Assembly (NCBI GenBank): GCA_002422165.1
Contig: DITQ01000010.1
Coordinates: 56,595-120,594 of the forward strand
Source: Candidatus Pacebacteria bacterium UBA6180
GTDB taxonomy: Bacteria > Patescibacteriota > Microgenomatia > UBA1400 > PJMF01
Length of the DNA stretch: 64,000 nt
Direction of reading: 5' to 3'
Made by a program: the position numbers and the translations under genes
The notes under the pieces: model-generated
The model's input: the letters and a program-made list of their open reading frames with translations, nothing else
What the model was told of the DNA's origin: nothing
Databases searched by the model: none
Shown: positions 4,664 to 59,421 of the stretch, piece after piece
How the letters are laid out: each line of letters opens with the position of its first letter
How positions within the stretch are numbered: position 1 is the stretch's first letter

Positions 4664-5514
4664 CAGCGCAAATTATTTATGAAGATCGCGATTTACTAGT
4701 TTTAAATAAAGCCAGCTTCGTCGTGGTCAATCGCGCTACTACGGTTCAGGTTTCCACTTTGCAAGATTGGTTTGTCAATCGCTTCGGCGAAGAATTTTTT
4801 ACTGAGGAGTTTTGGCAAGCGGAAACTGGCTGGCAAGAGTTGATTCCTGCCGATTTCGACTCAAGCTTTGGCCAGCCATTACAAATCTGGCAGGAGCGCT
4901 TGGGGGTAGTTCATCGTCTAGACAAAGATACTAGCGGCGTGTTGGTGATGGCCAAAAATCCCGGTGCGCTGCTGCACTTGTTAGCGCAGTTCAAAAAGCG
5001 CCAGACCAAAAAAACCTACTTAGCTCTAGTGCATGGCAAATTGGCAGAAAAGAGTGGTCAAATAATCGCGCCTTTGGCCAGAAATCCCCACAATCGTCTC
5101 AAGTTTGCTATTAGCGATGGTGGTCGACCAGCTGTCACTAATTACATAGTCAAACAAGAATTTAGTCAGCTGCGGGAAGATTTTTTGCTAGAATTGTCCG
5201 ACCAGCACCACCTGCGTACCAAGAAAATCAAAGAGCTGTATCAAGCAGGTTTTTCCCTGCTTGAGTTGTCACCTGAAACTGGTCGCACTCACCAAATTCG
5301 TGTTCATATGTTGGCAGCTGGTCATCCACTAGTAGCGGATCAGCTCTACGTTGGTAAGAAACGTGCTCAAGTGGACACGCTTTGGTGTCAGCGTCAGTTT
5401 TTGCACGCTAGTGTGCTTGAGCTGACTCACCCTCGAAGTGGTGAGCGCCTAAAACTTGAAGCGCCTCTGGCGACTGATCTAGAAGCCTGTTTGCAAGAGC
5501 TGATTCAAGCTTGA
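4660..5514 (+). CDS. RluA-family 23S rRNA pseudouridine synthase (RluD-like)
   Basis: The catalytic motif HRLDKDTSGVLVMAKN is present, and the C-terminal HQIRVHM motif is typical of the RluA family. Confidence 0.85.
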   Translation: MTAQIIYEDRDLLVLNKASFVVVNRATTVQVSTLQDWFVNRFGEEFFTEEFWQAETGWQELIPADFDSSFGQPLQIWQERLGVVHRLDKDTSGVLVMAKNPGALLHLLAQFKKRQTKKTYLALVHGKLAEKSGQIIAPLARNPHNRLKFAISDGGRPAVTNYIVKQEFSQLREDFLLELSDQHHLRTKKIKELYQAGFSLLELSPETGRTHQIRVHMLAAGHPLVADQLYVGKKRAQVDTLWCQRQFLHASVLELTHPRSGERLKLEAPLATDLEACLQELIQA

Positions 5515-5533
5515 TTTTTGACTTGTCCTACGC

Positions 5534-5539
5534 TATAAT
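5534..5539 (+). promoter_or_regulatory. Candidate -10 box (TATAAT) for the phosphoribosyltransferase operon
   Basis: A perfect TATAAT sits about 260 nt upstream of the 5801 start. The upstream TTGACT is only 10 nt away, so the -35 assignment is doubtful. Confidence 0.35.
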
Positions 5540-5670
5540 CAAGTTACATTAAAAACAGTAATTAAGAGTGCGAAAAGACGTTTAGTTTTTCGTATTCCCA
5601 AGTAACAAACTCGACCGAGAGATCGAGGGGACACCAAGTGAATAAGAAAAAGTGGGCGTCTTTTTTTATT

Positions 5671-5775
5671 TTTTCGGACCCTCCTTTTTTGAGAAACAAA
5701 AAAGGAGCAGGTACGAAAAATGCAAAGCGAATTTCGGACCCTTTGGTCACGAAAGACGCAACGGGTTTTCGGAAA
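5671..5775 (+). repeat. Tandem ~32-bp imperfect-palindrome repeats (locus A): GGTACGAAAaATGCAAaGCGAATTTCGGACCC x2, plus a partial half-site and a 10-bp-stem hairpin at 5683-5708
   Basis: Unit 1 (5710-5741) differs at only 2 of 32 positions from the reverse complement of the unit at 59184-59215. Unit 2 (5744-5775) is a degenerate copy. The half-site ttttcggaccc lies at 5671-5682. Each unit has half-sites GGTaCGAAA and TTTCGgACC around a 13-nt spacer. Confidence 0.75.
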
Positions 5776-5800
5776 GTATTAGACGAAAAAAAGGAAAACT

Positions 5801-6397
5801 ATGACCTTTCAGACAGACAGCTTCACAGGCGACGACGCCAAATACATCACGCCTAGCTGGGATCAGCTGGATAGCTTGACTTTGCACGTGGCCAAGCAAA
5901 TCAAAGCGGCCCAGTTGCATTTCGACCTAGTGGTCGCTTTAGCCAAGGGTGCCTGGCCGATGAGTCGTTCGCTGGTTGATTATTCAGGTATCAAAGAACT
6001 GGCTAGCTTGGGAGTCAAATTTTATAAGGGCATTAACAAACGCCTAGACAAGCCAGAAATTTATCAAGAATTGCCTACTTCGGTTCAGGGCAAAAGAGTA
6101 CTGGTCTTCGACGATGTCGCCGATAGCGGTGAATCACTGGCTTTTACCCTCGATTATTTGCGTCAAGCTGGAGCTAAGGACATCAAAACTGCCACTTTGT
6201 TTTTTAAACCTTGGTCGGTTTTGACCCCAGATTTTTATGGTGAGACAACTGAAGCCTGGATTATTTTTCCTTTCGAAAAGCGTGAAATGATCGAATTATT
6301 GACCAAAAACTGGCGAGAGCAGGGTAGAAGCAAAGAAGAAATTTTAGCCAGATATCAGCAGTTAGGTTTTATGGAGGTTTACGACAGTGTCTGTTGA
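5801..6397 (+). CDS. Phosphoribosyltransferase (purine/xanthine PRTase-like)
   Basis: The PRPP-binding motif VLVFDDVADSGESL is present. Length is 198 aa. Confidence 0.7.
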   Translation: MTFQTDSFTGDDAKYITPSWDQLDSLTLHVAKQIKAAQLHFDLVVALAKGAWPMSRSLVDYSGIKELASLGVKFYKGINKRLDKPEIYQELPTSVQGKRVLVFDDVADSGESLAFTLDYLRQAGAKDIKTATLFFKPWSVLTPDFYGETTEAWIIFPFEKREMIELLTKNWREQGRSKEEILARYQQLGFMEVYDSVC

Positions 6398-57316: not shown

Positions 57317-57553
57317 TTTATATTCTAAAAATTTACCTTTAGTTTTAAAACACAGTTTCGTTCTTTAATTCAGTCCATTGAAGGCGCTGAGCTGCAGTGT
57401 AAACGAATTGCAATGCTCTTAGACAGCGCCTTCATTGAGTAAGAAGAAGATTGTTGATTTCAATGAAGCAAGCATTTTCGTCGCACGTGACTGGATTAAA
57501 GAACGAAACTGTGTTTGTATTATAACGCTAGATCTTAGCCAGGCCAAGCTCTT
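57317..57553 (-). promoter_or_regulatory. pheST promoter (TTGGCC-N17-TATAAT, minus strand) plus structured leader with nested or alternative hairpins and an 18-codon leader ORF
   Basis: The minus-sense sequence reads ...agagcTTGGCCtggctaagatctagcgtTATAATacaaacacag.... The 22-bp outer arms at 57348-57369 and 57495-57516 pair exactly. Inner hairpins tgaaggcgctg/cagcgccttca and cttcattga/tcaatgaag are mutually exclusive. The leader ORF at 57419-57475 encodes MLASLKSTIFFLLNEGAV. Confidence 0.5.
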
Positions 57554-58527: not shown

Positions 58528-59157
58528 CTATTTTTTCTTGCCAATTGGGTCGATTTGTGCTTGTAGCTTCTTGCCAAGCAGTTTTGGCTCGATGCCTACT
58601 TTGCCCAAATCTTCATTTTCTTTAAAAATCCTGTTAATGACCTCGAAGCCGAGATCTTTGCGGACAATTTGACGACCCTTGAAGGTTAATGTCAATTTGA
58701 CCTTGTTGCCCTTTTCCAAAAAGTCTCTAACCTTACGGTTGCGAGCTTCGAAATCTGCTTCGCCCATGAAGGGGGTGAAGCGCAGCTCCTTGAGTTCCAG
58801 AGTCTTGGACTTTTTGCGCGTATCAGCCGTCTTTTTCTTGAGCTGATACTTGTATTTTGAAAGTTCAATAATCTTAACGACCGGCGGGTTAGCCTTCTCA
58901 GTGACTAAGACCAGGTCACTTTCTAACTCCATGGCTTTGGCCAGGGCCTCGTTGGAAGACATCTCTCCCAAGGATTCCCCAGACTCGCTTAGAACATACA
59001 CTTTGGGAAAACGAACCTGATGATTCGCCTTCACATATATTTGTTCGCTTCTATTTTTGTTGTATTTTTTTCTAATCACAAAAGATCGTTTATTATATAC
59101 CAATTGTTTAAAAATCTCGACGAGAGGAATTATAACCGATGAAGGCTGTTGTAGCAA
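58528..59157 (-). CDS. infC: Translation initiation factor IF-3 (true start uncertain, possibly a non-AUG start downstream of 59157)
   Basis: The C-terminal VKEIKFRPF-like ELRFTPFMGEADFEARNRKVRDFLEKGNKVKLTLTFKGRQI matches the IF3 C-domain. Synteny is infC-rpmI-rplT. Confidence 0.8.
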   Translation of the reverse strand: MLQQPSSVIIPLVEIFKQLVYNKRSFVIRKKYNKNRSEQIYVKANHQVRFPKVYVLSESGESLGEMSSNEALAKAMELESDLVLVTEKANPPVVKIIELSKYKYQLKKKTADTRKKSKTLELKELRFTPFMGEADFEARNRKVRDFLEKGNKVKLTLTFKGRQIVRKDLGFEVINRIFKENEDLGKVGIEPKLLGKKLQAQIDPIGKKK

Positions 59158-59183
59158 TTAGAGCTTGCGTTGCAAAAAGCGTG

Positions 59184-59290
59184 AGGGTCCGAAATTCGCG
59201 TTGCATCTTTCGTACCAAAAGGTCCGAAATTCGCGTTGCATCTTTCGTACCAGCTGCTTTTTGCCTTGCAAAAAGACAGGGTCCGAAATA
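59184..59290 (+). repeat. Tandem ~32-bp imperfect-palindrome repeats (locus B): GGGTCCGAAATTCGCGTTGCATCTTTCGTACC x2 plus partial third copy
   Basis: Near-identical units lie at 59184-59215 and 59220-59250. A partial gggtccgaaat sits at 59278-59288. The reverse complement matches locus A (5710-5741) at 30 of 32 positions. Confidence 0.8.
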
Positions 59291-59311
59291 TAATCACCAG
59301 TTGTTGTGAGT

Positions 59312-59386
59312 CGAGCTTGTAGCTCAGTTGGTTAGAGCGCTTCGTTGACATCGAAGAGGTCAGAGGTTCGAGTCCTCTCAAGCTCA
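59312..59386 (+). tRNA. tRNA-Val (anticodon GAC)
   Basis: The acceptor stem gagcttg / caagctc is perfect. The D-arm is tagctcagttggttagagc. The anticodon loop ttGACat reads GAC. A GGTTCGAGTCC T-arm is present. Confidence 0.85.
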
Positions 59387-59421
59387 CGATTTTTCAAACC
59401 AGTAATATAAAAAATAATAAA

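Follow-up and report, generated by a model that had tools for sequence, protein, structure and literature searches.

Two arrays of one palindromic repeat lie in a 64,000-nt stretch of DNA (hereafter, the window) from Candidatus Pacebacteria bacterium UBA6180 (GenBank assembly GCA_002422165.1, contig DITQ01000010.1, positions 56,595 to 120,594 of the forward strand). Locus A is found ahead of a phosphoribosyltransferase (PRTase) gene, and locus B separates infC from a divergently oriented tRNA-Val gene. An initial annotation had described the repeat as a 32-bp unit shared by the two loci at 30 of 32 positions, and this identity was borne out, with 0.00 matches in 100 dinucleotide shuffles. The unit GGTACGAAAAATGCAAAGCGAATTTCGGACCC at 5710-5741 (+) recurred at 59185-59216 (-) with two mismatches, one base away from the position first given (59184-59215), and again at 59220-59251 (-) with three. 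The half-sites GGTaCGAAA and TTTCGgACC, the 13-nt spacer between them and their single mismatch were likewise as described. Similarity extended well past 32 nt: 5672-5775 (+) was colinear with the reverse complement of 59184-59288, through arms of 49 nt (90% identity) and 31 nt (77%). Exact matches to the half-site GGTCCGAAA or its complement occurred only at these two loci in the window.

The 32-mer palindrome is the junction of two consecutive units, read out of phase. In the natural unit, a 13-nt linker is followed by a hairpin, TTTCGTACC-loop-GGTCCGAAA, whose left and right arms we call L and R; the 32-mer spans R, the linker and the next L. Both the array ends and the folding energies identified L-loop-R as the correct phase. 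Across related loci (given here as L plus three digits, and drawn from genome scans, metagenome scans and orthologous loci), arrays of one to six units began with an L arm, always preceded by G[C/T]ATC, and ended with an R arm. Folded as DNA, the two strands of the long L-loop-R module gave -12.4 and -15.2 kcal/mol (z -5.0 and -6.4), against -3.6 and -6.8 kcal/mol (z -0.8 and -3.0) for the R-13-L unit, and the fold of the whole locus B array picked L-loop-R pairings, joining L1 with R2 across AAAA. The two to three tandem copies claimed for each locus also resolved differently: locus A holds one intact R-13-L unit, a degenerate unit with indels (5745-5775) and an extra half-site (5672-5680), and locus B holds two identical units, a third half-site (59280-59288) and a truncated module (59165-59185).

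Unit length varied in a regular manner. The hairpin loop was either 3 to 4 nt (AAAA, GCTT, ACAT, AGAC, or GAC) or an inner A/T-tract hairpin centered on a self-complementary TTGCAA, which resembles a -35 box. Across genomes the linker from R to the next L measured 12 to 15 nt, and the L-to-R distance was 3 to 4, 28 to 34, or 48 nt. In relatives the repeat was usually 59 to 60 nt long (...GCATC TTTCGTACC AGCTGCTTTTTG-loop-CAAAAAGACAG GGTCCGAAA TTCGCTTT...). The 35-nt period of the window is the short form, from which the inner hairpin is absent, and short hairpin units were also found in L006, L015/16/18, L027, L029, and L043/44. All 20 distinct modules adopted a common fold consisting of a 5-bp stem, a mismatch, 3 bp, a 2-nt bulge and an inner stem. 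Arrays ended in GGGTCCGAAA TATAAT in five of the five genome-scan arrays not cut by a contig end, and GGGTCCGAAATATAAT was the array terminus in all related loci. In upstream units, the position of this hexamer was mostly occupied by TTCGCN, with no A at position 2; the exception was TATACT in L027, where tandem promoters are possible. Upstream units may, on this weak indication, be slippage duplicates with crippled -10 boxes. The number of short units differed between L043 and L044, L012 and L019, and L015/16 and L020. In L017 (6655-6752, -), the loop of a forward module enclosed a reverse module, both of a variant sequence type described below; the inner stem of the outer module, CTGAATTT/AAATTCAG, differed in sequence, and the structure folded at -20.9 kcal/mol (z -5.5). 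This arrangement hints at insertion into the loop or growth of the palindrome.

At locus B, the terminal TATAAT faces tRNA-Val, and the array was assigned to that gene on this ground rather than to infC; locus B reads as a tRNA-Val promoter array directed away from infC (Table 1). The initial annotation had placed the element in the same orientation toward PRTase and infC, within the promoter or 5' untranslated region (UTR) of each. The orientation is literally correct. The 5'-UTR placement at infC is not, since the predicted infC promoter (59157-59129) separates the units from the gene, and the infC start taken at 59157 was that of the maximal open reading frame (ORF), the gene being called from a GTG codon further in. 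At every informative locus the element faced the opposite gene, which at locus B is tRNA-Val. The divergent infC/tRNA-Val pair was kept in all relatives examined, as were the infC promoter and leader. The element lay between them in L043/L044, where IF3 is 86% identical to that of the window, and was absent from L038-L042 (IF3 80%) and L046/L047 (IF3 67%). The element-free tRNA-Val loci had an ordinary TTGATA-17-TATAAT promoter and a leader of 44 to 70 nt. As a separate observation at this locus, the last 15 to 20 nt of tRNA-Val (…TTCTCTCAAGCTCAC) recurred about 150 to 200 nt downstream in some relatives (L039, L042) and not in others, which looks like the att trace of an element integrated at the tRNA 3' end.

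Table 1. Repeat-associated features at loci A and B and on the same contig (window coordinates)
Feature	Position	Strand	Basis or remark
Locus B: truncated 5'-most module	59165-59185	+	-35-like TTGCAA (59170-59175) plus spacer, left arm absent; weak nhmmer match (model 24-53) at 59165-59196
Locus B: first R half-site, GGTCCGAAA	59186-59194	+	Exact match
Locus B: 13-nt linker TTCGCGTTGCATC	59195-59207	+	First 6 nt in the place of TATAAT in the terminal unit
Locus B: short hairpin unit (L TTTCGTACC, tetraloop AAAA, R GGTCCGAAA)	59208-59229	+	Array DNA fold
Locus B: second 13-nt linker, same as first	59230-59242	+	Direct repeat, 35-nt period, 100% identity
Locus B: long hairpin module (L 59243-59251; inner hairpin 59252-59279; R 59280-59288)	59243-59288	+	nhmmer 70.1 bits, E 4.7e-20
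Locus B: predicted -35, TTGCAA, within inner hairpin of long module	59266-59271	+	Promoter scan
Locus B: predicted -10, TATAAT, of tRNA-Val promoter (TTGCAA-17-TATAAT)	59289-59294	+	Promoter scan, 10/12 sigma-70 match
tRNA-Val(GAC)	59313-59387	+	Begins 18 nt past the -10
Predicted infC promoter TTGCTA-17-TATAAT	59129-59157	-	Outside the array, independent; conserved in relatives with or without the element
infC	58528-59079	-	GTG start at 59079
Locus A: long hairpin module, reversed (R 5680-5672; inner hairpin 5709-5681; L 5718-5710)	5672-5718	-	nhmmer 49.3 bits, E 1.5e-13
Locus A: 13-nt linker TTCGCTTTGCATT	5719-5731	-	Sequence reading
Locus A: short hairpin unit (R GGTCCGAAA 5740-5732; loop AAAG; degenerate L TTTCGTGACC 5754-5745)	5732-5754	-	Sequence reading
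Locus A: degenerate linker CCCGTTGCGTC and degenerate R TTTCCGAAAA, 5' end of inverted array	5755-5775	-	Sequence reading
Structured PRTase leader, about 105-120 nt, T-run at end	5547-5668	+	Predicted promoter at 5511-5539 (strong)
Third copy, beyond the window (L032 1165-1262)	66055-66152		Variant type TTTCATACY/GGTCTGAAA, perfect inner palindrome

The repeat belongs to a family of about 25 loci, 85 to 100% identical, in related small-genome Microgenomates of the Candidate Phyla Radiation (CPR). A scan of 185,579 species genomes with GGTCCGAAA-N13-TTTCGTACC returned 11 stretches, including six true loci (L003, L004, L006, L007, L012, and L013) that also shared the sequence of the "spacer"; the other five, isolated in G+C-rich genomes and with unrelated spacers, were of the kind that chance would give. 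A metagenome scan with AAAAAG-N3-GGGTCCGAAATATAAT added 16 further loci, several on contigs of 0.72 to 0.84 Mb. Neither pattern matched viral contigs (0 matches), and a phage or mobile origin was rejected. Public labels on the hosts were inconsistent, with "candidate division TM6" for L012 (CP011212.1) and "Pseudomonadales" and "Parcubacteria group" among L003 and L004/L006. Transfer across phyla was rejected, as the literature and protein similarity place the hosts in Microgenomates; CP011212 itself has been assigned to Microgenomatia, order UBA1400, family PJMF01 (PMC7143001). The PRTase and IF3 of the window had homologues in "Candidatus Woesebacteria" at 59 to 65% identity, its IF3 was 80% identical to that encoded on the 751-kb contig bearing L020, and the window also encodes type IV pilus genes and DUF5656/DUF5660 proteins. 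As far as seen, the family appears confined to CPR Microgenomates. Copy number was low: three loci in about 70 kb of the window's contig, counting the copy in L032 just beyond the window, and one to three exact promoter-pattern matches on each of four contigs of 0.72 to 0.84 Mb, in a census that is partial because it used exact patterns and not a degenerate model over whole genomes.

Orientation and spacing to the downstream gene were regular, with about 22 of the 25 loci aimed at an adjacent tRNA or start codon. The random orientation and dozens of copies expected of a generic repeat were not seen in this partial census. A tRNA began 11 to 20 nt past TATAAT in the window and in L003, L006, L007, L012/19, L015/16/18/20, L021/22, L024, L025, and L043. 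The genes concerned were a Thr-Tyr-Thr tRNA cluster (L003, L015, L016/18, L020, and L024), tRNA-Arg (L012/L019), tRNA-Gln (L021, L022), tRNA-Leu (L006, L007, L025), and tRNA-Val (window, L043). At protein-coding genes, the start codon lay 7 to 9 nt past TATAAT, as seen for yebC (L023/28), an epimerase gene (L027), an ORF of no assigned function (L013, L014/26), and the trigger factor gene tig, whose ATG follows by 8 nt in L032, where the copy stands directly after the gap stop codon. The exception in spacing was a GlyRS-like gene in L029, at 12 nt. Not every gene of these kinds carries the element: the window's own yebC (14953) has none and has a conventional leader, and its tRNA-Leu (3729) and tRNA-Ala (19250) have ordinary promoters. 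As a side observation, a conserved block of about 155 nt lies directly upstream of the cassette at the tRNA-Thr-Tyr-Thr cluster (L003 3506-3660, +, with homologues in L015, L016/L018, L020, and L024). It gave a subthreshold match to 6S RNA (21.7 bits against a gathering score of 46.4, E 0.02) and may be a divergent CPR 6S RNA.

The module was conserved to a degree similar to that of the adjacent tRNA genes. Between orthologous loci, the 57-nt module was 85 to 100% identical, compared with 92 to 100% for tRNA genes, 62 to 92% for short leaders, and 45 to 60% for DNA downstream of the tRNA. In an alignment of 18 distinct modules, 94% of cells in the proposed 19-pair hairpin were standard pairs, against 35 to 58% in slid controls. 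Pairs covaried at alignment positions 19-48 (AU in eight modules, GC in eight, CG in one) and 32-40 (GC in 17, CG in one). Outer-stem position 6 was unpaired (T.C) in 18 of the 18 modules, and in L036 the mismatch was flipped to C.T and not repaired. A compensated change from G-C to A-T in the outer stem (TTTCATACC/GGTCTGAAA) distinguished L043/L044, the trigger factor copy, and a second copy in L017, so that both sequence types are present in the window's own genome. The covariation and the unrepaired mismatch argue against a dimeric factor that reads the duplex, and favor maintained pairing with sequence-specific recognition of the mismatch region.

Locus A differs from locus B in both direction and state. 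The array is inserted between the T-run of the PRTase leader and the PRTase ribosome-binding site and is inverted relative to the gene, so that the minus strand, from 5775 to 5672, reads degenerate R, linker, degenerate L, AAAG loop, R, linker, L, inner hairpin, and R. Its -35 has decayed to TCTCAA, and AAATAA, derived from the T-run of the neighboring leader, occupies the -10 position. About five changes from the consensus have left the inner stem CTCCTTTTTTG/CAAAAAAGGAG fully paired. L033/L034, whose PRTase protein is 87% identical, are otherwise colinear but lack the block 5677-5766. Four of the five orthologous PRTase loci (L033, L034, L035, and L037) lack the element, and the fifth, L036, has one module in the same place and orientation as in the window. 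We regard locus A as a copy whose promoter is probably inactive, or at most weakly active in the antisense direction, and that would be transcribed passively within the PRTase 5' UTR.

Given these data, we consider it probable that the repeat is a promoter cassette of the sigma-70 type, portable and low in copy number, whose hairpin is maintained. The terminal unit of an array together with the abutting TATAAT would constitute a sigma-70-type promoter, TTGCAA-17-TATAAT, with the -35 box in the hairpin loop and the -10 box against the right arm. The main argument that TATAAT is a real -10 is its regular distance to tRNAs and start codons, and we identify the terminal unit as a sigma-70 promoter with fair confidence. 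Transcription from such a promoter would begin 5 to 14 nt before a tRNA, or precisely at a start codon, in which case the mRNA would be leaderless; start codons 7 to 9 nt past TATAAT have the spacing expected of leaderless transcripts. The pattern, set beside the conventional leader of the cassette-free yebC, suggests that leaderless translation is tolerated in this lineage. Gain and loss at single loci leave no infC/PRTase regulon and are what a portable promoter would do, and arrays would expand and contract by slippage. The pairing of the arms and the fixed mismatch would be maintained because the hairpin is recognized or extruded. We lean toward a DNA-level role for it, as a hairpin or cruciform or as the site of a hairpin-binding protein, and possibly also as a handle by which the cassette is copied. 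Action in DNA is favored by the placement of about half of the arrays between divergent genes, a setting in which transcripts should not reach them.

Several points weigh against this interpretation. The promoter, the start site and the leaderless starts were deduced from matches to consensus sequences and from regular positions. Because TATAAT was part of the metagenome pattern, that set is biased toward copies arranged as promoters; the six genome-scan loci are those free of this bias. Three copies, namely locus A, L036, and L017 7508-7565 (between a stop codon and the xth start codon), face the wrong way in codirectional intergenic DNA, and two of the three have lost the -35 while keeping the pairing. 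This leaves room for a promoter-independent role of the hairpin, for example at the RNA level. The covariation involves few positions and a small number of independent events, and gene conversion of whole modules or quasipalindrome template switching could have produced it free of selection; template switching would further account for the perfectly palindromic inner stems of the most diverged copies. Neither a clear target-site duplication nor a transposase was found in support of mobility. Filled and empty sites compared by eye (the PRTase locus of the window against L033/L037, and the tRNA-Val locus of the window and L043 against L038) revealed no clear duplication, their boundaries being indistinct because of A/T runs and because the old promoter had been replaced.

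A stronger version of the cassette model, which we think unlikely, is a promoter gated or recognized by its structure. The imperfect palindrome of about 46 bp over the -35 and spacer would have to extrude, or be bound by a protein, as a hairpin or cruciform, with the invariant T.C/A.G mismatch and the 2-nt bulge being read. Transcription of tRNA and translation genes in CPR cells, which are poor in regulators, would thereby be coupled to supercoiling or to that factor, and the hairpin would double as a handle for copying.

The main alternative, to which we assign a somewhat smaller chance, is that the hairpins act in transcripts, as 3'-end stabilizers, processing sites, or insulators of the gene upstream, or inside 5' UTRs, and that the promoter is secondary. 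This idea descends from the initial annotation, which offered a repetitive extragenic palindrome (REP)-like family as one of two explanations, and one part of that proposal stands: these are imperfect palindromes with a conserved mismatch, repeated in tandem like the BIMEs built from REPs. Many arrays start at most about 30 nt from the stop codon of a codirectional gene upstream (L004, L012/19, L021/22, L029, and gap-tig in L032), and reversed copies in transcribed spacers, as at locus A and in L017, have stayed paired after loss of the -35. A randomly oriented, high-copy, transcribed repeat does not agree with what was found. About half of the arrays lie between divergent genes (locus B, L006/7/25, L013, and L023), where transcription would not be expected to cover them, the hairpin has no U-tract after it on either strand and no terminator was called there, orientation to the downstream gene is strongly biased, TATAAT abuts the hairpin, and copy number is low in the partial census. 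Wobble-pair counts favored neither strand; an attempt to assign the strand from G.U versus A.C counts was abandoned when the loosened search was swamped by spurious sites.

The other explanation originally offered was an operator, in which a dimeric transcription factor bound to GGTaCGAAA-N13-TTTCGgACC would coregulate PRTase, infC, and possibly tRNA and translation genes. Some features invite such a model: the half-sites, asymmetry included, are invariant across genomes, the R half-site occupies a repressor-like position in the promoter spacer (about -21 to -13), the several upstream sites resemble auxiliary operators, and the downstream genes are mostly translation related. We nonetheless find it very unlikely. 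The distance between half-sites is not fixed in either phase, which rules out a rigid dimer operator, and in the terminal module their centers are about 37 bp apart, on opposite faces of the helix. Covariation is seen between symmetric positions, and a single genome holds both sequence types. The small regulon itself fails locus by locus, given that infC keeps its promoter and leader with the element (L043/L044) and without it (L038-L042, L046/L047), and that four of five PRTase relatives lack the element.

Equally slight, in our estimate, is the chance that the terminal promoter alone is functional, with the upstream units and the palindromy being by-products of slippage and template switching and locus A a decaying remnant: the crippled -10 positions of upstream units (TTCGCT and similar), their decay toward the 5' end of the array, the variation in unit number among near-identical strains, and the perfect inner palindromes of the most diverged copies agree with neutral debris, but the left arm GCATC-TTTCGTACC (about -63 to -50 in the terminal module), on which the scan pattern placed no constraint, is the same at every locus, the T.C mismatch and 2-nt bulge are never "corrected," and the module equals the neighboring tRNA gene in conservation.

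A number of other identities were tried and rejected. The sequence and the variable spacing do not agree with the Bacillus PurR PurBox (CCGAAC-like), the CtsR box, extracytoplasmic function (ECF)-sigma -35/-10 elements, parS, dif, or attC, as these sites are generally known. No intrinsic terminator was called in either array on either strand, the hairpin being followed by TATAAT or TTCGC, and a terminator of the upstream gene is further disfavored by the location of half of the arrays between divergent genes. A bidirectional promoter centered on the palindromic TTGCAA would have a spacing of 23 nt to any -10-like hexamer on the reverse strand, and a CRISPR-like array is excluded by "spacers" that are identical 13-mers. 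The view that the repeat belongs to no known riboswitch class was upheld, as Rfam matches at the gathering score in the window were tRNAs only. A literature search on Dependentiae, promoters and tRNA returned nothing relevant.

The PRTase gene (Gpt/HGPRT-like) probably has a real regulator in its structured leader, which is separate from the repeat. Every orthologous locus had the leader, even that of a Woesebacteria-like lineage with a PRTase of only 59% identity. In the leader alignment, 99.5% of cells were paired and nine of 32 pairs showed compensatory changes, values reached in 0 of 500 shuffles, and G.U pairs assign it to the plus strand. Only 20 nt separate the leader T-run from the ATG in L035, so that PRTase expression there must proceed by read-through. 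The leader is a candidate attenuator or riboswitch, for which purine, phosphoribosyl pyrophosphate (PRPP), or PyrR-like autoregulation may be considered. An Rfam search at E ≤ 10 over 5450-5850 gave chance-level matches only, at 20 bits or less, and a literature search on riboswitches, CPR, and PRTase yielded nothing relevant. Elsewhere in the window we noted two inverted repeats: a perfect 24-nt pair at 331-354 and 469-492, 114 nt apart, and a 48-nt pair (79% identity) at 57328-57375 and 57489-57536, 113 nt apart, between pheS and the rplT side.

CPR bacteria (Patescibacteria) have tiny genomes and few regulators and are mostly uncultured, and to our knowledge almost nothing has been established about transcriptional control of their stable RNA and translation genes. 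A single cassette conserved nearly as well as tRNA genes, and reused at tRNAs, trigger factor, the glyS-like gene, and yebC, offers a concrete and testable promoter model for this group. It could mark highly expressed genes and is a candidate part for heterologous expression. Covarying stems with an unrepaired mismatch upstream of a transcription start are unusual, and if DNA-hairpin recognition is real, the cassette would represent a naturally occurring case of promoter mobility or of promoter control that depends on structure. For annotation, the analysis removes a false infC/PRTase regulon lead and points out a distinct leader RNA that probably regulates PRTase.

Among known repeats, the REP/BIME elements of enterobacteria and pseudomonads (REPINs; cf. 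PMC8049555) are imperfect palindromes of 20 to 40 nt in which one position is conserved as unpaired; they occur in tandem, and linkers of two sizes alternate between them. The cassette shares the imperfect palindrome of this size, the conserved unpaired position, the tandem arrangement and the alternating linkers. REPs, however, occur in hundreds of copies per genome, mainly 3' of genes, and are transcribed, promoter free, and dependent on a RAYT transposase, whereas the cassette is low copy (in our partial census), oriented, and ends in a -10 box. Correia elements of Neisseria (CREE/NEMIS) are high-copy miniature inverted-repeat transposable elements (MITEs) of 100 to 155 bp, present as single insertions with 26-bp terminal inverted repeats, a TA duplication, and outward promoters. 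They resemble the cassette as small noncoding repeats whose inverted-repeat arms supply an adjacent gene with -35 and -10 boxes, would form hairpins if transcribed, and vary in presence at orthologous loci. The cassette differs in being tandem, in having no visible target duplication, and in carrying the -35 in its hairpin loop. Stable-RNA promoters of Escherichia coli have upstream activating regions with Fis sites and UP elements, and here too repeated conserved sites and A/T tracts precede the -35 of a tRNA promoter; Fis sites are degenerate, and unlike the cassette they are not hairpin-forming copies of the promoter.

The cassette also resembles putative mobile promoters (PMPs), defined as sequences of at least 50 nt and at least 80% identity upstream of genes with nonhomologous coding sequences and upstream neighbors (Matus-Garcia et al. 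2012, PMC3488235). In sequence the cassette fits this definition, its 57-nt module being 85 to 100% identical before tRNA-Thr, -Arg, -Gln, -Leu, and -Val, yebC, the glyS-like gene, the epimerase gene, tig, and the ORF of no assigned function, with promoter activity predicted. As with PMPs, families are small, flanking genes cannot be aligned, and presence differs between close relatives (PMC3488235). The PMP survey covered regions upstream of coding sequences and predates the genomes considered here (PMC3488235). In contrast to PMPs, the cassette has a defined hairpin with covarying stems and a fixed mismatch, forms tandem arrays, is concentrated at tRNA genes and putative leaderless mRNAs, and spans genera of CPR Microgenomates.

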